From Anaerolineales bacterium UBA6092 (lineage in GTDB: Bacteria; Chloroflexota; Anaerolineae; Anaerolineales; UBA4823): 64,000 nucleotides of DNA. The notes below the pieces were generated by a model. The model was given only the letters and a program-made list of their open reading frames with translations, did no database searches and was not told the origin of the DNA. The translations under genes were made by a program, and so were the position numbers. Below, piece after piece: positions 8,794-50,513 of the stretch. The stretch is taken from assembly GCA_002428565.1 (NCBI GenBank), contig DIXA01000026.1, positions 5,435 through 69,434 of the forward strand, read 5' to 3'. Positions within the stretch are counted from its first letter, which is position 1. The number at the start of each line of letters is the position of its first letter.

Positions 8794-9093
8794 ATGAAAC
8801 AATTTCCCAGGCGAACGCTCTTGCTCCTCCTGCTGTGCATCTTCTTGCTGCTGCTGGGAACCGGTGCAGCCTATGCCGGAGTGACCGCAGCCGAGATCCC
8901 CTGGTGGACGGTTGACGGCGGCGGCGGGCGCAGCACTTCCACCCACCTTGTGCTGAACGGCAGCATCGGCCAGTTTGATGCCGGAAGCATGTCCAGCAGC
9001 CACACCTATCTCTATGGCGGCTACTGGGTGCCGGGCGGCGAGCCAGGCGAAACAATCTACCGGGTGTTCCTGCCGCTGACCACCAAGCAGTAG
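8794..9093 (+). CDS. small secreted protein with duplicated Gly/Ser motif and C-terminal FLPLTTKQ tail
   Basis: Signal peptide MKQFPRRTLLLLLLCIFLLLLGTGAAYA. Half-repeats are GGGGRSTSTHLVLNGSIGQFDAG and SMSSSHTYLYGGYW. Ends in VFLPLTTKQ. Confidence 0.7.
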   Translation: MKQFPRRTLLLLLLCIFLLLLGTGAAYAGVTAAEIPWWTVDGGGGRSTSTHLVLNGSIGQFDAGSMSSSHTYLYGGYWVPGGEPGETIYRVFLPLTTKQ

Positions 9094-9113
9094 AAAGCCC
9101 TACCCCCCAACCC

Positions 9114-9156
9114 AGGAGTTTTGGGTGCACAAAGCGCACCCAAAACTCCTGTTTTT
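9114..9156 (+). terminator. Rho-independent terminator
   Basis: aggagttttgggtgc / acaaagc / gcacccaaaactcct followed by gttttt. Confidence 0.6.
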
Positions 9157-9283
9157 GACGTTAAAGGTGCGCCACATCGTCCAGGGGGACGATTTCATCT
9201 CGAAAATCCCCAAGACACGTCAATGATCTGGCTAAGATAGTGTGGTATATTAAGCGGAACTAGATTCTCGAGAAGTCTTTTTC

Positions 9284-10120
9284 TTGAGCGTTGATGTCAA
9301 AGGGCAAATAAGTATTTCAGGATCAATGATCTCCGTGTCCATTCGAAAATACCCATACTACCTTGCTTCTATCTTATCCTTACTGACCGGTATAGAAGCG
9401 CCCCTCATGGTTGTACGCGTCTTTCTGGGTCTATCCGCGCCCCCAAACCCTGTCATCCGCCTGCGCAAAAGCGGCCTGCGCTTTCAGGTGCGCGGCGCGA
9501 TGGATATTTGGAGCATTAAAGAAGCTCTGTTGGATCAATTCTACAGAAAATTTGGTACAGAAATTGGCGATGGCTGGTCGATTGTCGATATCGGAGCCGG
9601 CATCGGAGAATTCACGATCTATGCTGCCCATGGCCATGCCAATAATACGGTGTACGCTTTCGAGCCGTTCCCTGAGTCGTTCGCCATTTTGCAGAATAAC
9701 CTCAGCCGCAACCACCTGACCGGGGTACAGGTATTCAATGAGGCCATTGGGGCTGAAACGGGCACCTTGATCTTATCTTTATCGAATGACGAACCGCTGC
9801 AATTCAGCACCGCGGCGTCTGCTGCCTCGTCCATTTCTGTGCCTGCCCTGAGCCTCAGGGATGCCTTTCAACGCCTGGGATTGCAACGCTGCCATTTACT
9901 CAAGCTAGACTGCGAAGGGGCCGAGTATTCCATCTTATTCAACGCGCCAGATTCGGTTCTTGAATCCATCGATCATATTGTGATGGAATATCACGATGGC
10001 ATTACCCAGTACAACCACGGCGATCTGGCTAAATTTCTCATCAGCAAGGGGTTCCAGGTGAACGTGCAAGGCAACTACGTGCATGCTGACCTGGGATACT
10101 TGCATGCCTATCGAGGATAA
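9284..10120 (+). CDS. FkbM family methyltransferase
   Basis: DIGAGIGEFTIYAA...VYAFEPFPESFAILQNNL...LKLDCEGAEYSIL. The start codon is uncertain; the ORF opens on TTG. Confidence 0.75.
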   Translation: MSVDVKGQISISGSMISVSIRKYPYYLASILSLLTGIEAPLMVVRVFLGLSAPPNPVIRLRKSGLRFQVRGAMDIWSIKEALLDQFYRKFGTEIGDGWSIVDIGAGIGEFTIYAAHGHANNTVYAFEPFPESFAILQNNLSRNHLTGVQVFNEAIGAETGTLILSLSNDEPLQFSTAASAASSISVPALSLRDAFQRLGLQRCHLLKLDCEGAEYSILFNAPDSVLESIDHIVMEYHDGITQYNHGDLAKFLISKGFQVNVQGNYVHADLGYLHAYRG

Positions 10121-10128
10121 ACCCACCA

Positions 10129-10917
10129 GTGAGCAACGATTTTCTCTGGCCGCAGCTAAAGGAACTACCTGCTTTTCGCGCCCTCATCCGCGCCAGCGAG
10201 GCGCGTTTACTGGCAGAACTGGGCCCTTTGCCCCAGCCCATCTTAGACTTGGGTTGTGGTGATGGTCATTTTGCACAGGTCACTTTGGGCCAGGTTGGTG
10301 TCGGCATCGACCTGGACGCTGCCAATTTGCTTGAGGCGCGGGAACGTAAGGTGTACGCTTCGCTGAGCCGCGCCAGCGCGACTACCCTGCCATTCGCTAA
10401 TCATACGTTCGCTTGCATTATCAGCAATTGCGTCATTGAGCATATTCCTGATAATGATGCGGTGATGCACGAGGTGGCGCGCGTGCTGCGCCCGGGAGGC
10501 CGATTTATCTTTTCGGTTCCCACCGACCGCCTGAACGCCAGCCTGTTTGTGCCCGCGTTTTTGAAGCGCTTCGGTGCACATGGCCTGGCCCGTAAATACA
10601 TAGATTGGTTTACACGAATGCAGGTGCACTTTCATATGTATAGCCCGAACGAGTGGCAGCGGCGCGTGGAAGCGGTTGGGCTGCGTGTTGTTCAACAAAC
10701 GGGGTATATATCGCCGCGCGCAGCCAGGGTGATGGAATTTGGCCATTATTGGGGCTTAGGCAACCTGATCTCCCGTAAACTGACGCGTCGTTGGGTGTTA
10801 TGGCCCTGGCGCCCGCGCTTTGCATTGGAAGAGGCTGTGCTCGGACCGATGGTGATGGAAAATGACCCTCCCGGTGCAACCTGCGTTTTCTTTGTAGCGA
10901 TCAAAGATCAACCCTAG
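10129..10917 (+). CDS. class I SAM-dependent methyltransferase (Methyltransf_11-like)
   Basis: ILDLGCGDGHF...VGIDLD...IISNCVIEHIPDNDAVMHEVARVLRPGGRFIFSVP. Confidence 0.8.
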   Translation: MSNDFLWPQLKELPAFRALIRASEARLLAELGPLPQPILDLGCGDGHFAQVTLGQVGVGIDLDAANLLEARERKVYASLSRASATTLPFANHTFACIISNCVIEHIPDNDAVMHEVARVLRPGGRFIFSVPTDRLNASLFVPAFLKRFGAHGLARKYIDWFTRMQVHFHMYSPNEWQRRVEAVGLRVVQQTGYISPRAARVMEFGHYWGLGNLISRKLTRRWVLWPWRPRFALEEAVLGPMVMENDPPGATCVFFVAIKDQP

Positions 10918-10946
10918 ATAACCACATTATTTCTCCCGAGAACTAT

Positions 10947-13172
10947 ATGGCTAATGAATCACCAACCGTTCTTGACTATGTAAAGTCCCTCCTGAAGGGC
11001 AAACCCATCCATATACCCCCTTTGCCGAGTCAACTAGAGGCATACGTTTCTCAAGAGGGGGGGGCATCCCCAGAACAGACTTTTACCCCCATCGCACCTG
11101 AACTTGCGGTTGTGGAACCAAAAGCCGATTTGACTGGCGCTTCAATTTCTAACGATATCATCATTCCGCCTCCGCCTGCACAGCCAGTGGAATTTCCCTG
11201 GCGCGCCCTGGGGGCGTTGGGGCTGGCGTTGGCGGCGCAAATTTCTCTCGAACCGCGCCCAGATCGCGGCTGGGCCATCGGGGCAATCTTGTATTTCCTG
11301 GCCGCGGTGTGTGTCCTTTGGGCCAACGCCAGGCATGAGTGGAAGACGAGCGCCCTGCCTGCTCACACCGAAGGCAGCGCGGATTACCGGGTGCGCCCGA
11401 TCGCTATCTACATTGGCCTGCCGTTCGTGCTGCTGGCCTTCCTGTCATTTAGCGACAACCGTTTCACGGGCATCAATGTCACCCTGTGGCTGTTAGCCAT
11501 TGCCTGCTTCCTGTGGGCATTCTGGCAGCCCCGCCTTGCCGCGTCGGCAGGCACTTCCAGCTGGGCGTGGGTCAAGAGCCTGCCCAGCCAGTTGCGTTTG
11601 CCCTGGAAGATCTCCTTCTCGGGTTGGGCGCTGCTGATCCTGGCGGCGAGCGCGCTGGTGATCTTTTTCCGCATCTACCGCCTGAGCCAGGTGCCGCCCG
11701 AAATGGTCAGCGACCAGGCCGAGAAGTTGTTGGATGTGTGGGATGTGCTGAATGGCCAGGCGAGCATCTTTTTCTCACGCAATACAGGCCGCGAGGCCTT
11801 TCAAATGTATTTGACCGCAGCGGTTATCAAGGTCTTTGGCACAGGATACTCGTTCCTTAGCCTAAAGATTGGTACGGTTTTGTGCGGCCTTCTCACGCTG
11901 CCTTTCATTTACGGGTTGGGAAAAGAAGCAGGCAACCGCCGTGCAGGGCTGTTTGCGATGGTGTTGGCTGGGGTTGCGTATTGGCCAAATGTGGTCTCGC
12001 GGGCAGGGCTGCGGTATACGCTTTATCCATTCTTTGCCGCCGCTACGCTCTACTTCCTGGTGCGAGGGCTTCGCTCACGTAAGCCCAATGATTTTCTGTT
12101 AGCGGGGTTATTCTTGGGAGCCGGGTTGCATGGCTACAGTCCCTTTCGCATTGTGCCATTTGTGGTCATAGCGGCCATACTTTTGTATGTGCTGCATCGC
12201 CAGTCGCAGGGTGCCCGGTGGCAAGCGTTCTGGTGGCTGGGAATCGTGACGGTAGTGTCCCTGGTTGTTTTCCTGCCCTTGCTGCGTTATATGGTTGACG
12301 ACCCGAACATGGTTGCCTACCGCGCCCTCACGCGTATCGGTTCATTGGAACGACCACTTCCCGGCCCAGCCTGGCAGATCTTCCTAAAAAACCTATGGAA
12401 CGCGTTGACTATGTTTGCATGGGATAATGGCGAGGTTTGGGTAATTTCGATTCCACACCGTCCGGCGTTGGATATCGTCTCGGGGGCGCTCTTCCACCTG
12501 GGCGTAGTGCTGGTATTGGTGCGCTACCTGCGCCAGCGTCACTGGCTGGATATTTTCCTGTTGGTTTCGATACCGCTGCTATTGTTGTCCTCGATCCTTT
12601 CGCTGGCTTTCCCCTCTGAGAATCCTATCCTGAACCGCACAGGGGCCGCCTTTGTGCCTGCTTTTGTGATGATTGGCTTGGCACTGGACGGTTTGTTGAC
12701 GGGGATTGAGCAGAAAATGGCGACCTGGGGGAAGTCACTGGGTTGGGGGCTGGCGCTGGTGCTGATTGCCTGGTCTTCATTTAACAATTATGATCTGCTA
12801 TTTATCCAATATCAGAACCTTTACAAGCAATCGGCCTGGAATACAAGCGAAATGGGCCAGGTCGTTCACGATTTCGGTGAAATTTTTGGGTCTACCGAAA
12901 CGGTCTGGTTGGTTGGTTATCCCTATTGGGTAGATAGCCGCCTGGTAGGTATCAACGCGGGCGTGGTAACGCGCGACATGGCCATCTGGCCGGAGCAATT
13001 CTCAACCACTTTGAGCGAACCACGCGCCAAGATGTTCCTGATCAATCCGCAAGATGAAGCTTCGGCCAATCTCTTGCAGCAGGTCTACCCCCAGGGGGCG
13101 TTAATCCTGTACGACTCACGCGTGGACAAGGATTTTTATATCTACCTGGTTCCACCACAGATATCAAAGTAG
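10947..13172 (+). CDS. GT-C fold glycosyltransferase, ArnT/PMT (GT39/GT83)-like, polytopic membrane protein
   Basis: 741 aa with many TM helices. Contains LKIGTVLCGLLTLPFIYGLGKEAGNRRAGLFAMVLAGVAYW...YTLYPFF...LGAGLHGYSPFR, typical of PMT_2-type enzymes. Confidence 0.7.
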   Translation: MANESPTVLDYVKSLLKGKPIHIPPLPSQLEAYVSQEGGASPEQTFTPIAPELAVVEPKADLTGASISNDIIIPPPPAQPVEFPWRALGALGLALAAQISLEPRPDRGWAIGAILYFLAAVCVLWANARHEWKTSALPAHTEGSADYRVRPIAIYIGLPFVLLAFLSFSDNRFTGINVTLWLLAIACFLWAFWQPRLAASAGTSSWAWVKSLPSQLRLPWKISFSGWALLILAASALVIFFRIYRLSQVPPEMVSDQAEKLLDVWDVLNGQASIFFSRNTGREAFQMYLTAAVIKVFGTGYSFLSLKIGTVLCGLLTLPFIYGLGKEAGNRRAGLFAMVLAGVAYWPNVVSRAGLRYTLYPFFAAATLYFLVRGLRSRKPNDFLLAGLFLGAGLHGYSPFRIVPFVVIAAILLYVLHRQSQGARWQAFWWLGIVTVVSLVVFLPLLRYMVDDPNMVAYRALTRIGSLERPLPGPAWQIFLKNLWNALTMFAWDNGEVWVISIPHRPALDIVSGALFHLGVVLVLVRYLRQRHWLDIFLLVSIPLLLLSSILSLAFPSENPILNRTGAAFVPAFVMIGLALDGLLTGIEQKMATWGKSLGWGLALVLIAWSSFNNYDLLFIQYQNLYKQSAWNTSEMGQVVHDFGEIFGSTETVWLVGYPYWVDSRLVGINAGVVTRDMAIWPEQFSTTLSEPRAKMFLINPQDEASANLLQQVYPQGALILYDSRVDKDFYIYLVPPQISK

Positions 13173-13280
13173 ATCAATCTATGTATGAATGTAACACCGC
13201 TCCACTTATAGTGCCCTAACCCCATGCACACCGCTGCGGCCCAGGTGGGGATGCCTGGGGCGCAGCGATTGATTGTTTTG

Positions 13281-13321
13281 AACATCTGGAGCATCTCTGG
13301 TACCGGGATGCTCCAGATGTT
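13281..13321. terminator. 15-bp stem hairpin between convergent genes
   Basis: aacatctggagcatc ... gatgctccagatgtt, between the GT gene (+) and the rhomboid gene (-). Confidence 0.5.
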
Positions 13322-13337
13322 CGTAGATCGCAGAAAG

Positions 13338-13991
13338 TTAACCGGTAGTCAGTCGGGGCGACGAACCACCTCTCAACAAAAAGGTCAGTGCAAACCCTGC
13401 GATAAATCCGCCGATGTGGGCCATGTAAGCCACACCACCTGTCTGCGCTGGGCCGACAATCGAACCGATGCCGCTAAATAACTGCAGAACGATCCAGAAC
13501 CCAATCACGATCAGCGCGGGCACCGGGATGACTCGTTGTCCCTGCAATACTTTTACGCTTCCCTTAGGGAACAGTAAAATGTAAGCGCCAAGCACCCCCG
13601 CAACCGCCCCCGATGCTCCCAAATTGGGCACATCTGAGTTGAGGCTAAACGCCAACTGGGCAAAAGTTGCCGCAAGCCCACAGAGCAGGTAGAAGATGGT
13701 GAACTTAACATGCCCGAAACGATCTTCCACATTGTCGCCGAAGATCCATAAGTAGAGCATGTTGCCTCCCAGATGAACCAATCCGGCGTGCATGAACATG
13801 GACGTGAAAAGCGTGGGGAAATCACCGATGGGATTGGCAAGGAAGCGGCTGGGAACGAAAGCCCATTTCATAATAAAATCGTCACCGCCAGCCAGCTCCA
13901 CCAAGAAAAACAGGATGTTCAGAGCGATCAGCGCATACGTGACCAGCGGAATAGTTTTGCGAGAGCTATTATCATCACCAATTGGGAGCAT
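13338..13991 (-). CDS. rhomboid family intramembrane serine protease
   Basis: FMHAGLVHLGGNMLYLWIFG, GASGAVAGVLGAY (catalytic Ser) and HIGGFIAGF (catalytic His). Confidence 0.85.
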   Translation of the reverse strand: MLPIGDDNSSRKTIPLVTYALIALNILFFLVELAGGDDFIMKWAFVPSRFLANPIGDFPTLFTSMFMHAGLVHLGGNMLYLWIFGDNVEDRFGHVKFTIFYLLCGLAATFAQLAFSLNSDVPNLGASGAVAGVLGAYILLFPKGSVKVLQGQRVIPVPALIVIGFWIVLQLFSGIGSIVGPAQTGGVAYMAHIGGFIAGFALTFLLRGGSSPRLTTG

Positions 13992-14123
13992 AGGATTTAC
14001 CTCCTGATATGCTTGTGTGGATCATTTTTAAGCCAAAAAATGTTCTTGAACCTTCGCCGCAATCTGGCGATCGGTCATCTGTCAGCGGTTTCAACCCAAT
14101 TTCTTTTTTGATGATCAATCTCC

Positions 14124-15656
14124 TTATCGGTGTTGGGACGGGTTAACTTTCTTGAAGTCAATAAATCCCTGCTCAATATCTGTTTCGATCAACTGCACAC
14201 GCAGCCGGTCGCCAACATCCACGCCAGCGAACCCCTGCACCAATTTGCCTTCCACCGGCAAGCTGAGAATCCGGACCCAGGTGCCTTTCTCTGAAGCGCC
14301 CGTGACAATCGCATCGAACTGCTCCCCGATTCTCGATTCGAGCAGCAGCGCAGCCGCGGATTTTTCGACCTGACGTTCAACTTTGGTGGCGACATCTTCT
14401 GCTGCGGTGCAATGCGCTGCCAGCACATCCAACTCATCTTTGGTGTATGGCACTGGCTGACCTGCTATGGCTGCTTTCAGCAATCGTTGGGTGAGCAGGT
14501 CAGGATAGCGCCGATTAGGGGCTGTCGAGTGACTATAGTCTTTGACTGCCAGGCCAAAATGGCCGGGGGCATTCCCTTCAGGGAGTTCTGCCACATATTC
14601 GCCGTTTCCCAGAAGTTTGATCACTGCCAGGGATAAGTCGGGGAAACGCAGGGGATCAGCAGCTTTCTCCTGAATGAGAAACTTCTCCAGCGCTTTTGAA
14701 TCAGGGGTCCCGGGAAGCTTGATCCCATGCTCCCTGGCAATTTCAATAATCCGCTCCCAGCGTTTTGGCTTGCGTACCACGCGACGGATCGAGGGGAATT
14801 TCTTGGCGGAGAGATAGCGAGCAGTCACGCCGTTCGCCGCGATCATAATATCTTCGATAATCTCCTTGGCACGGTTCTTTTTCTCTATTTCCAGCGCGCG
14901 GATTTGGTCGCCATCAAATGCCGGCTTGGCCTGGATGGTCTCCAGGCTAAGCGCCCCGTGAATGTGCCGTACATTTTTCATCTTTTGGGTTGCCTGCTCT
15001 TGCAGGCGCAGATTCTCCTCCAGCCCAGTCACGGCTGCCACCGCCTCGGGAAGCGCTCCCCTCCCTTCCAGCCAGGCAGCCAGGCTGTTATAGGCCAGCC
15101 TGGCGTGGTTACAGACCCATGCCTGATAGATGTTCGAATCTTGCAAAGCTCCGTCCGCACCAATCACCATTTCGATCACAATGGCAAGGCGCTCCTGCTC
15201 AAAATTCAAGGATGTGATGTCCGTCGAAATTTTTTCGGGCAGCATCGGAAAAATCTCGGCCGCGGTATAAACTGAGGTGGTGTTCTGACGGGCGTGTTGG
15301 TCAATCGCGGAATTAGATTTCACCACCGCGTCCACATCCGCGATGGCGACTAAAATCTTCACCTGGCCTGCAGGCATGGCCTCGGCAACCGTCAATTGAT
15401 CCAGGTCACGCGAGTCATCGTTGTCGATGGAAGCCCATAAAAGGCTCCGCAGGTCACGAATCTGGCGCTCGGGCGGTTTCTGCCCGCCAGCACCGTCTGC
15501 CCCAACTCTCTTCATCGCGGGCGCCTGCATTCTATCTAGTTCAGCGAGTGCTGCGGCAGAAAAATCGGGGAGCAAACCGTGCTCAAGCATTGCCCGGCGG
15601 GCGATGCTCTGTAAAAGCGTGCGGTGCTGTCGATCATCGTGCGCTGTATATGTCAT
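14124..15656 (-). CDS. RNB domain ribonuclease (RNase II/R family) with C-terminal S1-like domain
   Basis: SIDNDDSRDLDQLTVAE...TSVYT...ERLAIV...HFGLAVKDYSHSTAPNRRYPDLLTQRLL. The ORF extends to 15701, but ATG 15656 (MTYTAHDD) is the more likely start. Confidence 0.8.
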   Translation of the reverse strand: MTYTAHDDRQHRTLLQSIARRAMLEHGLLPDFSAAALAELDRMQAPAMKRVGADGAGGQKPPERQIRDLRSLLWASIDNDDSRDLDQLTVAEAMPAGQVKILVAIADVDAVVKSNSAIDQHARQNTTSVYTAAEIFPMLPEKISTDITSLNFEQERLAIVIEMVIGADGALQDSNIYQAWVCNHARLAYNSLAAWLEGRGALPEAVAAVTGLEENLRLQEQATQKMKNVRHIHGALSLETIQAKPAFDGDQIRALEIEKKNRAKEIIEDIMIAANGVTARYLSAKKFPSIRRVVRKPKRWERIIEIAREHGIKLPGTPDSKALEKFLIQEKAADPLRFPDLSLAVIKLLGNGEYVAELPEGNAPGHFGLAVKDYSHSTAPNRRYPDLLTQRLLKAAIAGQPVPYTKDELDVLAAHCTAAEDVATKVERQVEKSAAALLLESRIGEQFDAIVTGASEKGTWVRILSLPVEGKLVQGFAGVDVGDRLRVQLIETDIEQGFIDFKKVNPSQHR

Positions 15657-15737
15657 AATAATATCTCCGATTAGGAACACTAAGCGAGCGCCGTGCGGCA
15701 AGAGAAGCCGGCTCGGTCACCGAACCGGAAGTATCCG

Positions 15738-15826
15738 TCCGAAAATTATGGGGGTGTGGGTGTTTGGCGGGGCGCAGCCCCGCCAAACACCCACCTCTCC
15801 CCCAATTTCCGGATAGGTTCTAAGGG
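15738..15826. repeat. about 85-bp quasi-palindromic repeat, copy 1
   Basis: tccgaaaattatgggggtgtgggtgtttggcggggcgcagccccgccaaacacccacctctcccccaatttccggataggttct. The inverted near-identical copy is at 16863-16951. Confidence 0.7.
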
Positions 15827-15839
15827 AAATCTGGTTCGG

Positions 15840-16094
15840 TTAGCGTCTGCGGCGGATCAGGCGGACGATCACCAGCAGGATGATGGCCCCAAGCAAAGTG
15901 ACCAGCATGGTTGGAATGGTGATCGCATCGTTGATCGTCCCAATATTGAACAGGGGGCTAAGCAAGAAGCCCGCCAGGAATGCGCCTACGATAGCCACAA
16001 CGATGTTGATCAGCAGGTTAGAGCGGTCGTGCATGATTTCGGTTGCAATCCAGCCGATTACTGCAGCAGCGATCAGGTAAATGATAATGTTCAT
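15840..16094 (-). CDS. GlsB/YeaQ/YmgE family (transglycosylase-associated) small membrane protein
   Basis: MNIIIYLIAAAVIGWIATEIM...IVVAIVGAFLAGFL. 84 aa. Confidence 0.8.
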   Translation of the reverse strand: MNIIIYLIAAAVIGWIATEIMHDRSNLLINIVVAIVGAFLAGFLLSPLFNIGTINDAITIPTMLVTLLGAIILLVIVRLIRRRR

Positions 16095-16159
16095 CTCTAT
16101 CTCCTATGTGAATGTTTGAATTACACGGAATACTGTTTGCCAAAGCAAAGACGGAAATT

Positions 16160-16801
16160 TTATAGATGCATCTCCTTCTCCAGGCGAAAGGCAGCTGGTA
16201 AAAGTTCACCATATCCCTGCAGACTTTCTCGCAGGCGCAGGCGGGCGCGAGCCAGGCGGCTCTTGACCGTGCCCAACGGCACGCGCACAACACTGGCCGC
16301 TTCACGGTAGTTCATGCCTAAAACATCCACCAGCACAACCATAGTGCGGAAGTCTATGGGCAGGGCGTTCAGGCAGCGCTGGATGGCGCGTTCGAGTTCA
16401 GCCGCCTCAAATTGATCTTCCGGCAATAAACCCGGATCGGCCAACCAGGGCGGAGTTTCTATTTCCTCGCCATCATCATTGGCAGGCTCAAGCGCCACCA
16501 TAGGATGGCGCTTTTGGCGGCGCAGTTCATCGTAACAGGCATTGGTAACAATGCGCATCAGCCAGGCTCTGAGGGAGCCGCCGCGAAAATGATGCATGCT
16601 GCGATAGGCCGAACAGAAAGCCTCTTGTGTGGCGTCGTCGGCAAGTTCATGGTTGCCGAGAATACGCAGGGCAACGTTGAAAAGAGAATCCTGATGGGTT
16701 AAGACAAGATGGTTGAAAGAGTCCAGGTCGCCGGGCTGGGCATCAAGGATAAGCATCGGATTTGTGGAGAGTACCTGTTCTTGATAGATTAACTGATCCA
16801 T
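16160..16801 (-). CDS. ECF-type RNA polymerase sigma-70 family factor
   Basis: Region 2 is FNHLVLTHQDSLFNVALRILGNHELADDATQEAF...LRAWLMRIVTNACYDELRR. Region 4 is NYREAASVVRVPLGTVKSRLARARLRL. ATG 16801 (MDQLIYQ) is preferred, because the upstream ORF extension runs through the palindromic repeat. Confidence 0.85.
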   Translation of the reverse strand: MDQLIYQEQVLSTNPMLILDAQPGDLDSFNHLVLTHQDSLFNVALRILGNHELADDATQEAFCSAYRSMHHFRGGSLRAWLMRIVTNACYDELRRQKRHPMVALEPANDDGEEIETPPWLADPGLLPEDQFEAAELERAIQRCLNALPIDFRTMVVLVDVLGMNYREAASVVRVPLGTVKSRLARARLRLRESLQGYGELLPAAFRLEKEMHL

Positions 16802-16862
16802 TTTGTGACCATTTTGCTGAGTCGATATGGAGTTCCTCACAACTGCAGCAGCACTTGTTGGA

Positions 16863-16951
16863 ACTTTAGAACCAATCCGGAAATTGAGGGAGAGGTGGGT
16901 GTTTGGCCGGGCGTAGCCCGGCCAAACACCCACACCCCCAGAATTTTCGGA
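16863..16951. repeat. about 85-bp quasi-palindromic repeat, copy 2 (inverted), in the sigma-gene leader
   Basis: By eye, the reverse complement matches 15738-15826 at most positions. Lies between the SARP-box promoter (16967-16996) and the sigma start codon. Confidence 0.7.
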
Positions 16952-16966
16952 TAGATACTTAGTTTA

Positions 16967-16996
16967 AGTATAAGGATCTAACGTCTCAAAAGCGTC
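16967..16996 (-). promoter_or_regulatory. SARP-box-like promoter upstream of the ECF sigma gene
   Basis: Minus strand reads GTGACGC-tttt-GAGACGT-tagatcct-TATACT. Spacing is the same as in the other four boxes. Confidence 0.45.
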
Positions 16997-17051
16997 ACAT
17001 ACGCCACAATACCGATTCTCGTCAGGGCAATTGCATCTTTTCGATCGTCTC

Positions 17052-18731: not shown

Positions 18732-18783
18732 CTCATTTTCTCCTTATGCTTGGGGGTGCTGTTAGAGCCAGATAGATGTTTAT

Positions 18784-19620
18784 CTACTTATCAATGAGGG
18801 AAAGGTCAGGGGGTGATGAAGAAACAGGTCGGGCGATAATGATCAGGCGGTATGCATTGCCGTCCGGCGGCCAGCACGTTACCAGGGTTAACCGTTCGTC
18901 AGCCGTGGGGTAGATGTACTGTGCATTCGCCTGGCGGATCTCTACCGTTTGGCCGTAATCTTCCAGGATCAATTTTTGTTCCACGCGATAGACACGCTCT
19001 TGGCTGGCAGTATACAGCGTGATCAGATCCCCCACTGCAAGGTCGATTAGATTCTCAAATACTCTGCCACGGATATTATGATGACCATCCAGCACCGTGT
19101 TTCCCGCCACGCCCACAGGCGCCGAGGTCTTGAGCCAACCGGCGGCAAAATGATCGGGCACATCCCAGATGTTCACCGGCTGACCATTGCGGGTTTCGGT
19201 GTGCCAGCCCACTGTTTCTACCGGCGCATCCAGCCCGATCGCCTCGATCACCAGGCGCGTTGGCGTTCTGTCTTCATCGGGCTGGGCCGTCTCAACAGGT
19301 TCGCTGATCTGGCTGGTAGGGTTACTGCTGATAGCTGTGCTGGCGACCTCCAGGACAAAAGCGAGTGTCTCAGGTGTGCTGGTGGGTGATGGAACCACAA
19401 ATACCGTTGGAGCGGGTTCGAAACTATCAGAACCATCAGATTCTCCGGTAGCTAACAAAAATTCGACCATCTCGGGAGAAACGAGCAGGACAGGTTGCGT
19501 ACTTGCCGGTGTTTCACTGGGTTTAAGGCTGGCTGAAGAAACGTAGCTCACGATGGATATCGCCAGCAATAACCCAACCACCAGGGTTACGTTTGCAGCA
19601 TGGCGTAGATTCGTGTGCAT
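18784..19620 (-). CDS. sortase family transpeptidase (membrane-anchored)
   Basis: N-terminal TM helix. Sortase fold motifs are NTVLDGHHN (His), LTLVTCWP (TLxTC Cys) and YRLIIIARP (Arg). Confidence 0.8.
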   Translation of the reverse strand: MHTNLRHAANVTLVVGLLLAISIVSYVSSASLKPSETPASTQPVLLVSPEMVEFLLATGESDGSDSFEPAPTVFVVPSPTSTPETLAFVLEVASTAISSNPTSQISEPVETAQPDEDRTPTRLVIEAIGLDAPVETVGWHTETRNGQPVNIWDVPDHFAAGWLKTSAPVGVAGNTVLDGHHNIRGRVFENLIDLAVGDLITLYTASQERVYRVEQKLILEDYGQTVEIRQANAQYIYPTADERLTLVTCWPPDGNAYRLIIIARPVSSSPPDLSLIDK

Positions 19621-19626
19621 GCGGTA

Positions 19627-22578: not shown

Positions 22579-22640
22579 TCAGCACACACTTTTCATAAGC
22601 TATCCAACTGCCCAAAGCCTGCCCGACATTGACTGAACCT

Positions 22641-23753: not shown

Positions 23754-23764
23754 GAGACACCTCC

Positions 23765-45508: not shown

Positions 45509-45520
45509 AAATACAGTAAG

Positions 45521-45819: not shown

Positions 45820-45836
45820 ATATTCTCCTGTTTCGG

Positions 45837-47291
45837 CTACTTTTTCACCATCATCGGCAGATAAATAATCTCCACCGGTATCTGCGGCCCAAAGGTACAA
45901 GGCAGCGAGAATTCGGAAGTGTTGCCGCCTGCGTCAATGGTGATAGCCGTCACTTTGGGACCAGTGATATCACCATAATAATTCCAATTACCATCGCCAT
46001 CCGCAGAGGTGAAACCGTGATAGGTTTGGCCCTGATTGCTAGAGTCTGAGAACACCTCTACGGTGCAAAAAGCACAGGCGGTACCCCATGCGCCAGCGGT
46101 GTCAGCAGCAAAGATGTCCGGTGCAGCCCGATTGGCATTTCCTCCATCCCTCAGATCAATACCGCCCAAGCTATTGCCGTAGATACTGTTCTTACTGATT
46201 ACGTTGCCCGTAGCACTCGTTCCGGAAATAGTAATCCCCTTACGAACATTCTCTGCAATCGTGTTCGACAGGATGGTGTTCCCGCTTCCGTCCAGGATAT
46301 AGATACCGTCATCTCCATTCTGGCGGATGGTGTTCGCTTCCACAATGTTATTGTGGCTATTATTGATGGATATGCCTCGCAGACCGTTCATAGAAATGGT
46401 GTTGCCCGCCAATACGTCCCCGCCCACGCGATTGCTCTGTGCGCCACTTGCAATCATGATCCCGTGCTCACCATTACCGATCTTCTGCGAACCCACGGCA
46501 GGCGGGCCAATGAAGTTGCCTCCCAGCAGGTTGCCATTTGAGCCGCTGCCCGCAATGTAAACGCCAGCGTTCGTATTGCCCGAGATGTAGTTCCCCTGCC
46601 AGGACTGGTAGCCGCCGATGATGTTGTCATGGGCGCCAGCGACAATATAAATGCCAATTTTATTTGGAACTGCGTCGCTCCCAGCAATGCCTAAGCCAAT
46701 CCAATTGCACTGAATCAGGTTATGATGTGCATCGGCATTGCCAATGTAGATACCATAGTCCGCATTGTTGGAAATCACATTACGAGCGCCCACTGGCTGA
46801 TCGCCGATGATGCTATAAGAAGAGTATATCGTGATCGCTGTATCACAATTGTAAATGTAAAACCCATAGATATGGGCGTAGTCCGCTAGGATTGTAAAAC
46901 AGGATATGCTCTGGTCCACACCATTGATATTGACACCAGGTCGATCCTCAGCGTCATTCCAAACCCCGCTGGCATTCAAGATCGTTGCAGCTTCGATGGT
47001 CAGGGTTCCTTCCCCAGAATCCAGGTAGATGGTCATGGGAGAGGCAAAGGTGATCGTGTTTTCGCCGCCTAACGCATTGGTTTCTTCAATCGCTGCCCGC
47101 AGGGTACACTCATCCAGCGTGCTTAAGCAGTTGCCATCGCCAGGGTTTTTATCGTGCGCCGAGCTATCATCCAAACTGCTGTCCACCACGAAGGAGACCG
47201 TTTGCCGGGCGGCCGCGGGCTGAAAGTTTGCCAGGGAGACCAGCATGGCCAGGAGTAAAAAGAGAACCATGAATTTATGGTAGGTTTTCAT
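45837..47291 (-). CDS. secreted right-handed parallel beta-helix (PbH1) repeat protein; C-terminal IYLPMMVKK tail
   Basis: ATG 47291 follows GAAAGGTG. Has a signal peptide. Motifs CTLRAAIEETN...NTITFA. Many NN.I.GN-type helix turns. Paralog of 47413-49188. Confidence 0.8.
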   Translation of the reverse strand: MKTYHKFMVLFLLLAMLVSLANFQPAAARQTVSFVVDSSLDDSSAHDKNPGDGNCLSTLDECTLRAAIEETNALGGENTITFASPMTIYLDSGEGTLTIEAATILNASGVWNDAEDRPGVNINGVDQSISCFTILADYAHIYGFYIYNCDTAITIYSSYSIIGDQPVGARNVISNNADYGIYIGNADAHHNLIQCNWIGLGIAGSDAVPNKIGIYIVAGAHDNIIGGYQSWQGNYISGNTNAGVYIAGSGSNGNLLGGNFIGPPAVGSQKIGNGEHGIMIASGAQSNRVGGDVLAGNTISMNGLRGISINNSHNNIVEANTIRQNGDDGIYILDGSGNTILSNTIAENVRKGITISGTSATGNVISKNSIYGNSLGGIDLRDGGNANRAAPDIFAADTAGAWGTACAFCTVEVFSDSSNQGQTYHGFTSADGDGNWNYYGDITGPKVTAITIDAGGNTSEFSLPCTFGPQIPVEIIYLPMMVKK

Positions 47292-47357: not shown

Positions 47358-47394
47358 GGGGGTATTTTTCGGGCAAAGCCCGAAAAATACCCCC
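47358..47394 (-). terminator. 17-bp perfect-stem hairpin between the two PbH1 genes
   Basis: gggggtatttttcgggc aaa gcccgaaaaataccccc. Confidence 0.4.
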
Positions 47395-47412
47395 ACAGAA
47401 CTCTCATAGAGC

Positions 47413-49188
47413 CTATTTTTTGACCGTCATCGGCAGGTAAATTGCATAACCGCTGAAGGTATCGCCGGTGGTGAAGCGCCACACCGGACCACTGGTCACA
47501 CCGCCATTGCCGTCATCGGCGGTTACCTGCCACTCGTAAGTGGTAAAAGTCTGCAAACGCCCCAACTGACAGTAGGTGTTGGTTGTGCTGCACCACTGTA
47601 TCCAGGTAGATGATCCCTGTACCCGGCCATACACCTTGTAGGTTACCGTATCGCCGTCTGGGTCGTCACCGCACCAACTGACCATGGGATTGATGAAAAT
47701 TTGCGTGTCGTTGTCAATGGGGCTGGGGCAACCAGGGGCATTCGGCGCCTGGTTGCCGCCGCCGCCCAGGGTGTACGGCGCAGAGAACTCAGAGGTGCTC
47801 AAAACGCTGTTTGTGGCGGTGGCAGTGATCTTTGGCCCCGCCAGCGCACCGATATAAGACCAGTTGCCGCTGGCATCGGCATTGACCATACCATGATAGG
47901 TTTCGCCCTCATCAACATCATCGGAGAAGATTTGAACGATGCAGTTGGCGCAAGCAGTTCCCGAAGCGCCGCCAATCGTGGCGCTGGTGATCGTGGGCGC
48001 GGCAAGCTCGCTATTGCCGCCATCTGTCAGGTCGATGCCCTGATCCAAGTTGTTATAAATGCTGTTCTGCGAAATCCAGTTGCCCAGCGAGGCGGCACCA
48101 CCCACCCGAACCCCATCTGTAACGTTGGAGGCAATGGTATTATCAATAATGGAGTTTTCGGCGCCGTCCTGGATATAAACGCCAAAGTTATTGTCGCTAA
48201 TGGTATTGCGCTCCATGTTGGTGAAATTTGCGCCCAAAACGACGATCCCGGGTCCGGTATGGTAGCGGATGGTATTGGCCTCTAACGCTCCCCCGCCGCC
48301 AATATAGTTATATTGAGCCCCATCAGTCAGCTGCACCCCTCCTGCACCATTTGGCAGGGCCGCACCGACAATGGTTGTGCCAATCAGATTGCCGCCCAGG
48401 GCATTGCCATCAGAGCCAGCGCCGAAGATCACCACGCCGTAATTGGTGTTGCCAGAGATGAGGTTGCCCTCAGCAGCCGTGCTGCCTCCGATCGTGTTGT
48501 AAGATGCATGGTCCGTGATCATGATGCCACTCTCATTGGAGTGTGCCAATGTCCCCGATGGATTGGTGCCAATGTAATTGTTCTGCACCAGGTTGTATTG
48601 TGCCGTGCTGCCAAAGATTAGAATGCCACAATTCGCGTTGCCAGAGATCACGTTTCTGTGACCTTGGGTTGTACCGCCGATCTGGTTGTTGGCAGACGAG
48701 ATAACAAGCCCATTGAAGCCAAAGTTGTCGATATGCAAACCTCGAATCACGCATCCACCGGCAAAGAGCTGCAAACCACTGAAACTGCCGCCGCCCCCAT
48801 TCAGGATCACCCCTGGCTTGTTGTTGGTGGTATCCCATACGCTGCTGGCATCGATGGTCACCGGGTTAGAGATGGCAGGCAAGTATCCTTCGCCGACATC
48901 AATCTGGATGGTCATGGCAGAGGCAAAGGTGATCGTATCGGAATCGGAGGAGGAATTGGCCTCTTCAATAGCGGCGCGCAGCGTGCAGCGCATGCCGTTA
49001 TCCATGCAGGTTCCATCGCCCAGCATGTTATCGTGCGCGCTGGCATCATCGGCATCGCTTGTGACTACCAGAGAATCTTTGGTTGGCTGCGCAGCCGCAT
49101 CTCGCGCCGGGGCAAATACGCCCATCCAGCCGCTTGCAAGCAAGGCCGCCACAAGAAACAGGTTCAAGAAATTTCGTCGAGTTTTCAT
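47413..49188 (-). CDS. secreted PbH1 repeat protein with an extra C-terminal domain; C-terminal IYLPMTVKK tail
   Basis: ATG 49188 (MKTRRNFLNLFLVAALLASGW...). Motifs CTLRAAIEEAN...DTITFA and beta-helix repeats. The C-terminal ~90 aa include NQAPNAPGCPSP...YEWQVTADDGNGG. Confidence 0.8.
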   Translation of the reverse strand: MKTRRNFLNLFLVAALLASGWMGVFAPARDAAAQPTKDSLVVTSDADDASAHDNMLGDGTCMDNGMRCTLRAAIEEANSSSDSDTITFASAMTIQIDVGEGYLPAISNPVTIDASSVWDTTNNKPGVILNGGGGSFSGLQLFAGGCVIRGLHIDNFGFNGLVISSANNQIGGTTQGHRNVISGNANCGILIFGSTAQYNLVQNNYIGTNPSGTLAHSNESGIMITDHASYNTIGGSTAAEGNLISGNTNYGVVIFGAGSDGNALGGNLIGTTIVGAALPNGAGGVQLTDGAQYNYIGGGGALEANTIRYHTGPGIVVLGANFTNMERNTISDNNFGVYIQDGAENSIIDNTIASNVTDGVRVGGAASLGNWISQNSIYNNLDQGIDLTDGGNSELAAPTITSATIGGASGTACANCIVQIFSDDVDEGETYHGMVNADASGNWSYIGALAGPKITATATNSVLSTSEFSAPYTLGGGGNQAPNAPGCPSPIDNDTQIFINPMVSWCGDDPDGDTVTYKVYGRVQGSSTWIQWCSTTNTYCQLGRLQTFTTYEWQVTADDGNGGVTSGPVWRFTTGDTFSGYAIYLPMTVKK

Positions 49189-49274
49189 TTGATTTTCTCC
49201 TTGGTTTGTTTTTGAGATAGTTTTTTTGTACGCACTCTGTGCGAAGAACCGCCAACTTGCTCGCAAAACCTGCC

Positions 49275-50513
49275 TCAGCGCCTGCCCACATACGGGATCC
49301 AAACCCGGAGGTAAGCCGGGCTGCCGGTCACAGGCTGGTCACTTTTGGCGTAGCAGATATCCATATCTGTACCGTCGTCATCGTAGTAAACCACATGCAC
49401 ATATCCGGCCCCATCCAGCGCAACGGCAGCATCGTTCCATGCCAGCAGCGCTTCCTGATTCGTGGCCGAAGCAACCATATGCTGGCTCCATGATCCGCCC
49501 AGATTATTGGCGTAATAGATGTAGTACTTCGAATCAAAATATTCATAGACGATGTGCGCCTTACCGCTGCGATCGACCAGGATGGATGGATTGGAATTGA
49601 TCATATCGCTCGCCACCACAGTAAACGCCCACGCGCCGCTCGCATTTGTGGCATAACCGATCCGGTAACCTTCCATACTCGTGATGCCCATGGCAATATG
49701 CGCCTTGCCGTTCTCATCCAGGGCCAGCGAGGGGTGTTCGTGGCTGGCGCTCATATCGGCAGCCACCTGGCTGAAATACCAGTTGCCGCCGCTGTACAAC
49801 GCGATCCAAACGTCTTCCACATACGTGGATGCGTTGCTGCGCTGAAAAGCAACCTGGATCTGCCCGGCTTTGCTGATCTGCAACGAGGGATAACGATCAT
49901 AGGTAGCATCATCGTCTGCTACAATCAGAGTGACCCAACCACCGCTGATCGACTGGGTAAGGCTGCCCTCCTGGTAACGGATCTGGAGATCATAATCCCC
50001 GCCGCCATCCAAAGTGTCATGGTAAGTGTGGTAAGCGATGTACGCATGACCGGTGCCATCCAGTGCCATACTGAGGTGCAAAGCCCAGGTAGCAGGGATG
50101 TACCCATTCCCCGCCAACTCACCCACCCACGCGCCGCTGGCATTGGTTGCGTAGTAGATATTCATCGTCAGAGGAGGGGTTGAAGAGTCGGGCACATGCA
50201 AATACGCCACATGCGCCGCACCGCTGCTATCCACCAGAATGGTGGGGCGGTAGTTATCATCTGCAGGAATGGAAATCAACGTTGCAGACCAGGAGCCGCT
50301 GGCGTTGGTGGTATAGTAGATATCGCCGCCACTCTCGTAAGCCACATGCGCATGGCCAGCGTTGTCTACGGCGATCGTGGGCGATGTGTCATCGATAAGA
50401 TTGTTCGTCACCCGCACCGGCAAGAACGATACGCCATTTTGCGCCCAAGCCTCTGGTAAGGTTGGCACCAGGGTCAATACAAGAATACATGCCATGATCA
50501 CAATCGATTTCAT
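49275..50513 (-). CDS. secreted beta-propeller-like repeat protein; C-terminal VWIPYVGRR tail
   Basis: Signal peptide. About 7-8 repeats of the form P.i.vD..G.AHvaY......iyYATNASG.W. Confidence 0.75.
   Translation of the reverse strand: MKSIVIMACILVLTLVPTLPEAWAQNGVSFLPVRVTNNLIDDTSPTIAVDNAGHAHVAYESGGDIYYTTNASGSWSATLISIPADDNYRPTILVDSSGAAHVAYLHVPDSSTPPLTMNIYYATNASGAWVGELAGNGYIPATWALHLSMALDGTGHAYIAYHTYHDTLDGGGDYDLQIRYQEGSLTQSISGGWVTLIVADDDATYDRYPSLQISKAGQIQVAFQRSNASTYVEDVWIALYSGGNWYFSQVAADMSASHEHPSLALDENGKAHIAMGITSMEGYRIGYATNASGAWAFTVVASDMINSNPSILVDRSGKAHIVYEYFDSKYYIYYANNLGGSWSQHMVASATNQEALLAWNDAAVALDGAGYVHVVYYDDDGTDMDICYAKSDQPVTGSPAYLRVWIPYVGRR

Follow-up and report, generated by a model that had tools for sequence, protein, structure and literature searches.

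A short conserved C-terminal tail on secreted proteins of Anaerolineae

Results

Secreted proteins with a shared C-terminal tail

The 64,000-nucleotide stretch of DNA analysed here (the window; Anaerolineales bacterium UBA6092, assembly GCA_002428565.1, contig DIXA01000026.1, positions 5,435 to 69,434 of the forward strand) encodes seven exported proteins that end in a short, similar tail, together with a membrane-anchored sortase and two proteins that carry C-terminal membrane anchors (Table 1). Translation reproduced all seven C-termini exactly at the positions given in a preliminary description of the locus, and that observation is confirmed. Each of the seven proteins has an N-terminal signal-peptide-like region, and none has a C-terminal membrane helix; the maximum 19-residue Kyte-Doolittle hydrophobicity in their last 49 residues is at most 1.02, compared with 2.71 for the protein ending in MPVTG and 1.74 for that ending in LPSYG, the two membrane-anchored proteins named in the same description. 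Domain searches confirmed the assignments of DUF3344, sortase, Peptidase_C25, Ice_binding/DUF3494, Beta_helix/NosD (two proteins) and BNR.

Table 1. Features of the window, with positions counted from its first nucleotide. PSSM, position-specific scoring matrix built from the tails of homologues.
Position (strand)	Protein	Features	C-terminus (position)	PSSM score
8794-9093 (+)	Small secreted protein	99 aa from MKQF; ORF also open from 8761; no Pfam hit	Tail VFLPLTTKQ (9064-9090)	15.6 bits
13338-13991	Generic Rhomboid-domain protein			
17052-18731 (-)	DUF3344 secreted protein		Tail VLLPLIFR (17055-17078)	12.7 bits
18784-19620 (-)	Membrane-anchored sortase	TLVTC at residues 245-249; below the cut-off of every sortase class model	No tail	
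19627-22578 (-)	PorU-like multidomain C25 cysteine peptidase	Signal peptide; gingipain-like prodomain (about residues 72-220); Ig-like domains; catalytic domain, residues 608-960, with His830 (20089-20091) and Cys864 (19987-19989)	Tail IYLPIVIQNTPER (19630-19668)	
22641-23753 (-)	DUF3494/ice-binding-like beta-helix protein	C-terminal FN3-like beta-sandwich (residues 259-356, 22686-22979), then a variable linker	Tail LYLPLLGK (22644-22667)	
23765-24208 (-)	Small Thr/Pro/Ala-rich protein, probable substrate of the neighbouring sortase	Similar proteins recur in C25 loci; no NCBIfam hit for its anchor	No tail; MPVTG, membrane helix and KTKTK (23768-23902)	
45837-47291 (-)	Parallel beta-helix (NosD/Beta_helix) secreted protein	CSLREA-like N-terminus; likely start at MKTYHKF (47291)	Tail IYLPMMVKK (45840-45866)	14.4 bits
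47413-49188 (-)	Second parallel beta-helix secreted protein	591 aa from MKTRRNF	Tail IYLPMTVKK (47416-47442)	13.5 bits
49275-50513 (-)	BNR/propeller-type secreted protein		Weak variant tail VWIPYVGRR (49278-49304)	Below 8 bits
50934-58601 (-)	Giant FG-GAP repeat protein	2555 aa	No tail; LPSYG, membrane helix and RRRAKQRG (50937-51023)	

The pattern first proposed for the tail, [YFLW]-[LI]-P-x-x-x-[KR], can be refined by comparison with homologues to [R/Q/H]-hydrophobic-[Y/F]-[L>F,I,V]-P-hydrophobic-hydrophobic-x-[K/R, sometimes N/Q], followed by 0-4 residues in about 95% of cases. The C25 peptidase of the window has Gln at the K/R position, while its homologues have Arg there.

In order to determine whether these endings could arise by chance, we first applied a strict regular expression to the 1215 stop-to-stop open reading frames of at least 30 aa in the window; six were matched, all of them real long genes. 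A 9-residue PSSM built from the tails of homologues was then used to score proteins outside the C25 and FN3-module families, where it reached at least 12 bits seven times within the last five residues of a protein, but only five times anywhere 35 or more residues from the end, in roughly 330,000 positions. In a separate scan of 10,511 stop-to-stop open reading frames of at least 60 codons from 81 sources, every C-terminal hit of at least 12 bits was a tail-type ending of a real gene, one of these being a 90-codon fragment of a C25 gene (12502-12774 of L072, one of the sources scanned), and no unrelated short open reading frame reached this score. Outside the same two families the tail is found on 5 of 162 predicted soluble signal-peptide proteins and on 0 of 399 predicted cytoplasmic proteins (Fisher p = 0.002). 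Codons differ between the tails and all three stop codons are used; the tail is not a DNA repeat, and selection acts on the protein.

Conservation and distribution of the tail in Anaerolineae

The tail is conserved across class Anaerolineae (Chloroflexota). Counting PSSM hits together with variant tails, it is carried by 110 of 120 homologues of the C25 peptidase, 70 of 120 DUF3494 homologues, 79 of 120 beta-helix homologues and 127 of 144 proteins that share a new FN3-like C-terminal module. In alignments of 23 C25 and 30 DUF3494 homologues, which share only 50-78% identity, Leu and Pro of the tail are invariant or at least 90% conserved, while the linker that precedes the tail is not conserved. 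Of the tails examined, 132 end exactly at the K/R; 59, 68, 26 and 15 have one, two, three and four residues after it, and 17 have five or more, the distance to the true C-terminus varying from 0 to 9 residues. An N-terminal hydrophobic signal region is present in 219 of 261 full-length carriers. At least ten unrelated families carry the tail, namely C25, DUF3494, DUF3344, beta-helix, BNR, FG-GAP, cadherin-like, LVIVD, subtilisin S8 and giant proteins of up to 5891 aa. The density of tail genes is uneven, with about 7 of 40 genes in the window compared with about 5 of 750 in the flanks of other loci. The tail has pLDDT below 50 in both AlphaFold2 models, and is thus predicted to be disordered and not part of a fold.

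Comparison with more distant homologues shows that the position of the tail is occupied by known surface-anchoring signals in other phyla. Distant DUF3494 homologues end in membrane-helix-plus-basic anchors in 29 of 120 cases, and distant beta-helix homologues end either in membrane-helix-plus-RRRW anchors or in type IX secretion system (T9SS) C-terminal domains (PF18962; the ending of one such homologue, P0480, hits TIGR04183). While the FG-GAP giant of the window ends in LPSYG and a membrane helix, FG-GAP giants of L083, from another Anaerolineae MAG, carry the tail. The tail therefore behaves as a modular sorting tag. It matched no NCBIfam or Pfam model, and full-text literature searches found nothing on it.

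The C25 peptidase and the neighbouring sortase

The best sequence and fold match of the C25 peptidase is PorU. The best PDB fold hit is PorU 6za2 (E = 3.7e-25 over about 807 columns), ahead of the gingipains, and the catalytic His830 and Cys864 are invariant. The enzyme nevertheless falls below the cut-offs of both PorU models (243 against 420 bits for NCBIfam T9SS_sortase, and 141 against 450 bits), and Arg722 of PorU, a conserved residue proposed to underlie its sortase-like chemistry (PMC4560394), aligns to a conserved Gly896. AlphaFold2 does not dock the tail of the enzyme into its own active site.

In at least 44 of 78 species-level loci the gene immediately upstream of C25 encodes a tail-bearing protein, with a gap of -135 to about +130 nt and often with overlap of the two genes; these loci span Anaerolineales, Thermoflexales, Caldilineales, Promineifilaceae and Ardenticatenaceae, and often have a sortase and a small LPXTG-like protein nearby. 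The sortase lies next to C25 in only about 20-25 of the 78 loci, where it has its own plausible substrates, small Thr/Pro-rich proteins that end in LP(V/N/Q/A)TG, a membrane helix and Arg residues. Tail-bearing gene clusters also occur with no C25 within 10 kb (loci L083-L085).

Discussion

The preliminary description held that the tail is a candidate undescribed sorting or processing tag, distinct from LPXTG, PEP-CTERM, GlyGly-CTERM and similar tripartite signals, and that either the sortase or the C25 peptidase encoded among the tagged genes could process it. Our data support this interpretation in part. That the tail is a real, modular C-terminal tag on otherwise unrelated Sec-exported proteins is supported, as is its distinction from those tripartite signals, since it has no membrane helix; the suggested link to C25 gains real support, while that to the sortase is weakened.

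One of the closest known arrangements is the C-terminal domain signal of the T9SS and its C25 sortase PorU in Bacteroidota. In both cases the signal lacks a membrane helix and is found on Sec-exported proteins of many unrelated folds, and here a PorU-like enzyme is encoded next to tagged cargo and carries the tag itself, as PorU carries the T9SS C-terminal domain (PMC5445135). Many of the tagged cargos have a beta-sandwich as their last folded domain. However, the tail is an 8-residue linear motif and not a folded domain of 70-100 aa, it also occurs on proteins without the beta-sandwich, and it hits neither TIGR04183 nor PF18962. Chloroflexota are generally regarded as lacking an outer membrane, and no T9SS outer-membrane component lies in the window.

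Like LPXTG-type cell-wall sorting signals, the tail sits at the C-terminus of signal-peptide proteins, occurs many times per genome, contains Leu-Pro, ends in basic residue(s), often shares its locus with a sortase and replaces LPXTG-like anchors in homologues. It differs from them in having no Thr-Gly, no hydrophobic membrane segment and usually one basic residue rather than a cluster, and it is not hit by the LPXTG_anchor model. The tail also resembles a drastically shortened form of the tripartite signals read by intramembrane enzymes (PEP-CTERM/exosortase, PGF-CTERM/archaeosortase, GlyGly-CTERM/rhombosortase and MYXO-CTERM/myxosortase), in that a Pro-containing signature motif is followed by hydrophobic and then basic residue(s). 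Of the seven attributes used by Haft to recognise C-terminal sorting signals, it meets five, those of location, multiplicity, invariant residues, signal peptides and diversity of carriers; it fails that of the membrane helix and only partly meets that of the basic cluster (10.1101/2023.06.07.544157). Only 2-3 hydrophobic residues stand in place of a helix of about 20, so it cannot reach an intramembrane active site, and no exosortase, archaeosortase or CPBP-family gene lies in the window. With respect to the passengers rather than the tag, DUF3494 and beta-helix proteins resemble the "choice-of-anchor" families of Haft (DUF3494 may be related to "choice-of-anchor A") in that they appear with different C-terminal anchors in different lineages, and the tail is one more alternative in that slot.

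Among the alternatives to a tag that is processed, the best surviving is a non-covalent docking peptide, which would bind a conserved surface receptor, wall polymer or sheath component, for example by beta-strand addition, and hold proteins at the surface without being cleaved. The tail is short, disordered and on a flexible linker, its varying distance from the C-terminus fits linear-motif recognition, the C25 carries the tail as a cargo would, and tail-gene clusters occur without a nearby C25. We consider this less likely, as no candidate receptor was found and known short C-terminal sorting motifs are, as a rule, cleaved (10.1101/2023.06.07.544157). Our sum of Wimley-White interfacial free energies for a consensus such as IYLPLVIR is only about -1.4 kcal/mol; simple membrane partitioning therefore cannot hold a 3000-aa protein, and a specific high-affinity receptor would be needed.

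It is also unlikely that the tail is not a sorting signal but a removable pro-peptide, or a quality-control or degradation tag, which might control folding, latency or turnover of exported proteins, or slow their release from the Sec translocon. The tail is terminal, disordered and hydrophobic-plus-basic, and is genetically linked to a protease with a gingipain-like prodomain. Against this, the same slot in homologues from other phyla holds membrane-helix anchors or the T9SS domain rather than nothing, which argues for a localisation role, and a folding or latency function is hard to reconcile with at least ten unrelated folds.

Slightly less likely still is recognition of the tail by the neighbouring sortase as a degenerate LPXTG-like signal for attachment to the wall. 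A sortase gene follows C25 in about 20-25 of 78 loci and in the window, the tail shares the Leu-Pro dipeptide with LPXTG, and in the window a tail-bearing DUF3344 gene follows the sortase. However, the tail has no conserved Thr or Gly after the Pro, where hydrophobic residues are preferred, it has no membrane helix to hold the substrate, the same loci encode proper sortase-type substrates, and most C25 loci have no adjacent sortase. Although the motif is short and the pattern first proposed for it was loose, chance, a DNA-level repeat or an artefact of ORF calling is refuted by the enrichment at protein ends, the differing codons and stop codons, and conservation across hundreds of homologues from independent metagenomes.

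The analysis itself establishes the motif, its restriction to protein ends and to secreted proteins, its conservation, its interchange with known anchors and its synteny with C25; that the tail is recognised and processed, and by which enzyme, is inferred from sequence and predicted structure alone. We regard it as somewhat more likely than not that the tail is a sorting, retention or processing tag read by dedicated machinery. The PorU-like C25 peptidase is the best candidate for that machinery, although this remains a hypothesis and is possible rather than likely. It would cleave in or before the tail, and might also transfer the protein to a wall component, possibly one linked to the neighbouring sortase and its small LPXTG-like stalk protein; transpeptidation chemistry of this kind is unlikely on present evidence. 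Clusters without a nearby C25 indicate that its adjacency to tagged genes could reflect a specific enzyme-substrate pair among proteins that all simply share a general tag read by something else, and the absence of a membrane helix offers no evident means of holding a Sec-released protein for processing.

Taken together, these results suggest, at a confidence no better than even for the model as a whole, that the tail is a lineage-specific, modular sorting or processing tag for Sec-exported proteins of class Anaerolineae. In this view it is a disordered peptide with a core of about 8 residues, hydrophobic-[Y/F]-L-P-hydrophobic-hydrophobic-x-[K/R], on a variable linker of 6-15 residues behind the last folded domain. 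Once the N-terminal signal peptide has taken the protein across the membrane, a dedicated extracytoplasmic partner would read the tail and retain or mature the protein at the cell surface, and the tail would thus fill the role played by LPXTG, PEP-CTERM-type anchors or the T9SS C-terminal domain in homologues from other phyla.

The C-terminal tail in the window and its statistical support

Translation of the window reproduced all seven C-termini at the coordinates reported in the preliminary description, so its observation holds. Each of the seven proteins begins with a signal-peptide-like segment and none has a hydrophobic stretch near its end; the maximum 19-residue Kyte-Doolittle value in the last 49 residues is at most 1.02. 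By comparison, the two membrane-anchored proteins that the same description had set apart as carrying classical tripartite signals score 2.71 (MPVTG...KTKTK) and 1.74 (LPSYG...RRR). These two anchors are themselves not recognized above cut-off by any NCBIfam sorting model: MPVTG gives no hit, while LPSYG gives LPXTG_anchor at 13.6 bits (cut-off 15.9) and GVDTG_CTERM at 15.4 bits (cut-off 29), and sortase signals of the Anaerolineae may therefore also be poorly modeled. The domain assignments were confirmed as DUF3344, sortase, Peptidase_C25, Ice_binding/DUF3494, two NosD/beta-helix proteins and a BNR protein. Among roughly 40 real genes in the window about a dozen are exported; seven of these carry the tail, two carry membrane-helix anchors, one is a lipoprotein and one or two have nothing. 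The G+C content drops at about 8 kb, where the genes for exported proteins begin, and the high-G+C regions carry many long spurious antisense ORFs. A 401-residue exported protein with no Pfam hit and no tail lies immediately upstream of the small tail protein and overlaps the longer ORF form of that gene by 17 nt, so the two may be a co-transcribed pair. Just downstream of the small tail protein lie two methyltransferases and a PMT_2-family glycosyltransferase, followed by a rhomboid protease on the other strand; any role of these in the modification of surface proteins would be conjecture.

Features of the window and of two comparison contigs, L083 and L085 (each from an unrelated metagenome-assembled genome, MAG)
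Feature	Sequence	Coordinates	Strand
Region with G+C of 0.63-0.65	window	1-8000	
Region with G+C of 0.54-0.56	window	8001-20000	
Long spurious antisense ORF (example)	window	375-2606	+
M16-peptidase-like ORFs opposite it	window	171-1445 and 1461-2765	-
Large BTAD-AAA-TPR (SARP/MalT-like) regulator	window	3688-7188	+
Exported protein, 401 aa, no Pfam hit, no tail	window	7572-8777	+
Two methyltransferases (FkbM-type and class I SAM) and a 741-aa PMT_2-family glycosyltransferase	window	9284-13172	+
Rhomboid protease	window	13338-13991	-
Operon-like group around the C25 gene	window	17052-24208	
PorU-like C25 peptidase	window	19627-22578	-
FN3-like module of the DUF3494 protein (residues 259-356)	window	22686-22979	-
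MPVTG anchor with membrane helix and KTKTK	window	23768-23902	-
Cluster of tail genes behind a BTAD-AAA-TPR regulator	window	45.8-62.8 kb	
LPSYG anchor with membrane helix and RRR	window	50937-51023	-
Large BTAD-AAA-TPR (SARP/MalT-like) regulator	window	58945-62817	-
Large BTAD-AAA-TPR (SARP/MalT-like) regulator	L083	1961-5602	
Large BTAD-AAA-TPR (SARP/MalT-like) regulator	L085	6125-9874	

A strict regular expression for the tail matched 6 of 1215 stop-to-stop ORFs of at least 30 residues in the window, and all six are the long real genes. To extend this analysis, we built a 9-residue position-specific scoring matrix (PSSM) from 165 homologue tails, with the consensus [Q/H/R]-[I/V/L]-[Y/F]-L-P-[W/I/L/F/V]-[I/M/V]-x-[K/R]. 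Outside the two families used to build it, the C25 and FN3-module families, the PSSM scored at least 12 bits seven times within the last five residues of a protein, but only five times anywhere 35 or more residues from the end, in roughly 330,000 positions. In a separate scan of 10,511 six-frame ORFs of at least 60 codons from 81 sources, every C-terminal hit of at least 12 bits was a tail-type ending of a real gene, one of them a 90-codon fragment of a C25 gene, and no unrelated short ORF reached this score. Outside the C25 and FN3-module families the tail is found on 5 of 162 predicted soluble signal-peptide proteins and on 0 of 399 predicted cytoplasmic proteins (Fisher p = 0.002); equal frequency on cytoplasmic proteins had been named beforehand as an outcome that would count against the tag. 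The seven tails use different codons and all three stop codons, indicating that the peptide is conserved and not a DNA element; a DNA repeat or terminator encoding the tail was rejected on these grounds. Read-through into a hidden membrane helix was likewise rejected, as all three stop codons are used and the next genes begin within 16-60 nt or overlap. A translational arrest motif is considered unlikely, given that the distance from the proline to the stop codon varies and that the tail is restricted to exported proteins of many families.

Conservation of the tail in the Anaerolineae

The homologues are from MAGs named as Anaerolineae, Anaerolineales, Thermoflexales or Chloroflexi. A scan of one genome per GTDB species with an alignment of the C25 peptidase returned 80 loci from Anaerolineales, Thermoflexales, Caldilineales, Ardenticatenaceae, Promineifilaceae, Ca. 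Leptofilum, Ca. Amarolinea and Litorilinea. Counting PSSM hits together with variant tails, the tail is present in 110 of the best 120 C25 homologues, typically as ...DTFTLLGDPAxRxNxTxVPWxxxxYLP[LIV][IV]x[RK]; in 70 of 120 DUF3494 homologues; and in 79 of 120 beta-helix homologues, typically as ...GNTSEFSAP-(6-12 residues)-YLPLVxR. In alignments whose members share only 50-78% identity with the window protein the leucine and proline are invariant or nearly so, while the preceding linker is not conserved. In the DUF3494 alignment both Leu365 and Pro366 are invariant; in the C25 alignment Pro974 is invariant and Leu973 is at least 90% conserved. The PSSM gives 4.8 bits for the tyrosine, 3.1 for the leucine and 3.8 for the proline of the [Y/F]-L-P motif. 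The basic position is usually a single lysine or arginine (3.3 and 3.0 bits), sometimes two, and is sometimes replaced by asparagine or glutamine. It is the last residue of the protein in 132 cases and is followed by one to four residues in 168 cases and by five or more in 17, such that zero to four residues follow it in 300 of 317 tails. By a crude hydrophobicity test, 219 of 261 full-length carriers have an N-terminal signal region. We also examined whether tail variants co-vary between the C25 and its upstream neighbor within a genome; a few shared oddities exist, such as FVP in both proteins of L031, one of the C25 loci, but there is no consistent pattern.

The tail occupies a position that in other homologues is taken by known anchors. 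The more distant DUF3494 homologues end in a membrane helix plus basic residues in 29 of 120 cases, some of these following LPxTG-like or PEP-CTERM-like motifs. Distant beta-helix homologues end with nothing, with membrane-helix-plus-RRRW anchors, or with type IX secretion system (T9SS) C-terminal domains; the latter carry PF18962, and the ending of one such homologue, P0480, hits TIGR04183. The giant FG-GAP protein of the window uses LPSYG plus a membrane helix, while FG-GAP and cadherin-like giants of another Anaerolineae MAG end in VYLPLTLRQ and VYLPLALKNR. Elsewhere the tail is found on an LVIVD protein, on a 1350-residue subtilisin and on proteins of 3000-5900 residues, and at least ten passenger families carry it. 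This is the behavior of a sorting tag that can be swapped for other tags.

AlphaFold2 models give pLDDT values below 50 for the tails of both the DUF3494 protein (mean pLDDT 83) and the C25 peptidase (mean pLDDT 74). The tail is thus predicted to be a disordered peptide on a linker and not the last strand of a domain. In the DUF3494 protein it follows an FN3-like beta-sandwich of roughly 100 residues (ELLYF...W.TA.E.DN.GFNLYRA...WWYWL.DVDT.G.E..HGPVS), which has no Pfam, NCBIfam or PDB sequence match. An exhaustive phmmer search nevertheless finds this module in 6399 representative proteins at E ≤ 0.001, including giants of up to 5891 residues, and it looks like an uncatalogued domain family. 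It is almost always at the extreme C-terminus, and in 127 of 144 listed proteins (P0241-P0384) the tail follows it; a few multi-repeat proteins with this module end instead in T9SS-type domains. We considered whether the module might be a disguised T9SS domain, but the lack of a PDB sequence hit and fold hits limited to generic FN3 domains with weak E-values led us to reject this reading.

Genomic linkage to a PorU-like C25 peptidase

ORFs from the 80 C25 loci (L003-L082) were clustered. In at least 44 loci the gene immediately upstream of C25 encodes a tail-bearing protein with the FN3-like module, the passenger being either DUF3494 or a giant of over 3000 residues; gaps run from overlapping to about 130 nt, which suggests an operon. 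A sortase follows C25 in about 20-25 loci, and often a small Thr/Pro-rich protein ending in LP(V/N/Q/A)TG, a membrane helix and arginine residues lies between them. The window and a 6.8-Mb contig show the same order. A conserved operon-like arrangement of FN3-module tail protein, C25 with tail, small Thr/Pro-rich LP(V/N/Q/A)TG protein and sortase recurs across orders of the Anaerolineae (the window, L003-L082 and a further locus, L086), whereas Promineifilaceae and Leptofilum instead have a protein of about 480 residues with a C-terminal membrane helix, a Ser/Thr kinase-like gene and others after C25. Tail genes also cluster away from any C25, with none within 10 kb. Contigs L083 and L085 have 3-4 such genes in a row (3-4 in L083 and 3 in L085) behind large BTAD-AAA-TPR regulators, and the window has the same arrangement. 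The position of these regulators at the head of clusters of tail-bearing surface-protein genes suggests dedicated regulation of these gene sets.

The C25 enzyme of the window is a full multidomain relative of PorU. The public gene call for it (P0121, 920 residues) starts 63 codons too late and removes the signal peptide; homologues and another public call (983 residues, L001) support the longer form. PorU (PDB 6za2) is the best fold hit (E = 3.7e-25, about 807 columns), whereas gingipains match only the catalytic and pro-domains. PorU is also the best sequence hit (E = 1e-20), Peptidase_C25 matches at E = 1.6e-85, and the catalytic His830 and Cys864 are invariant. PorU removes the T9SS C-terminal domain and attaches cargo to anionic LPS by a sortase-like mechanism, and it carries such a domain itself (PMC5445135; PMC4560394). 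The parallel is suggestive, because here too the enzyme carries the tag and sits next to tagged cargo. However, the enzyme does not qualify as PorU: it scores 243.5 bits against the T9SS_sortase model (NF033707; cut-off 420) and 140.9 bits against the PorU2 model (cut-off 450), and it has no T9SS domain. The conserved arginine found 32 residues after the catalytic cysteine of PorU (Arg722; PMC4560394) is also missing, since in the phmmer alignment ...FSTTR of PorU aligns to ...WGATG, and the arginine column is Gly896, which is at least 90% conserved in the C25 alignment. The hosts, moreover, are Chloroflexota and not Bacteroidota. In the AlphaFold2 model of the C25 its own tail was disordered (pLDDT below 50) and not docked in the active site, a result that is uninformative as to recognition.

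Comparison with described C-terminal sorting signals

Whole proteins and isolated tails of 23-29 residues were scanned against NCBIfam release 20 and Pfam. No sorting-signal model matched, among them LPXTG_anchor, PEP-CTERM, GlyGly-CTERM, MYXO-CTERM, GVDTG_CTERM and Por_Secre_tail, and the tails gave no NCBIfam hit even at E up to 10; a positive control showed that short T9SS and membrane-anchor endings are detected in this way. Full-text literature searches found nothing on this tail or on C25 enzymes in Anaerolineae, although absence from the literature searched is not proof of absence. Measured against the published criteria for small C-terminal sorting signals (Haft, bioRxiv 10.1101/2023.06.07.544157), the tail agrees in its location, its multiple occurrence in one genome, its invariant residues, the signal peptides of its carriers and their diversity. 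It lacks a hydrophobic segment long enough for a transmembrane helix, as only two to three hydrophobic residues follow the proline, and it usually ends in one basic residue, sometimes in two, where the published signals have a cluster of two to five. With regard to LPXTG signals, the positions one and two after the proline prefer W/I/L/F/V and I/M/V, and no threonine or glycine is conserved. With regard to the T9SS cargo signal, five of the seven window proteins have no folded beta-sandwich C-terminal domain of 70-100 residues, and the FN3-like module on DUF3494 hits neither TIGR04183 nor PF18962. The window proteins that were scanned include none of the T9SS outer-membrane translocon and attachment components (SprA, PorV, PorZ, PorK-N and others). 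The tail is a putative new C-terminal sorting signal with no membrane helix and no folded domain, its function and machinery both being inferred.

Taken together, our analysis establishes a conserved motif, almost exclusively C-terminal and predicted to be disordered, on proteins with Sec-type signal peptides, which is interchangeable with known anchors and linked to a PorU-like C25 peptidase; that a dedicated extracytoplasmic partner reads this motif, leading to surface retention or maturation, is inferred. The interpretation offered in the preliminary description, in which the tail is an undescribed sorting or processing tag with either the sortase or the C25 as a plausible processing enzyme, is thus partly supported. 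The C25 is the best candidate for such a partner, but only tentatively so, and transpeptidation is less likely than cleavage because the arginine is missing. A non-covalent docking peptide is a less likely alternative. A manual sum of Wimley-White interfacial energies for IYLPLVIR comes to only about -1.4 kcal/mol; simple membrane partitioning is therefore too weak, and the invariant Leu-Pro argues for specific recognition. A pro-peptide or quality-control tail is improbable, and recognition by the sortase is more doubtful still.

In an unlikely but permissible reading, the 8-residue tail is the recognition tag of a sorting pathway that is independent of T9SS. A PorU-like C25 peptidase of the Chloroflexota, a phylum generally regarded as single-membraned, would cleave the tail and then covalently attach dozens of proteins per genome, including adhesin-like giants of 3000-5900 residues, to a wall component, which may be the small sortase-anchored Thr/Pro-rich stalk protein encoded in the same operon. 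This would be the first C25-type 'sortase' outside the Bacteroidota, and the first short linear sorting signal that lacks a membrane helix.

Anaerolineae are abundant in sediments, hot springs, anaerobic digesters and activated sludge, yet the means by which they display surface proteins are essentially unknown. All catalogued short C-terminal sorting signals need a membrane helix, and the T9SS signal needs a folded domain. If confirmed, a short linear tag without a helix, on at least hundreds of proteins, would add a new rule to bacterial protein sorting; the FN3-like module, which usually precedes the tail, has 6399 representative sequences at E ≤ 0.001. It would give a simple predictor of the surface proteome of a whole class, and would point to a PorU-like C25 enzyme working outside type IX secretion.
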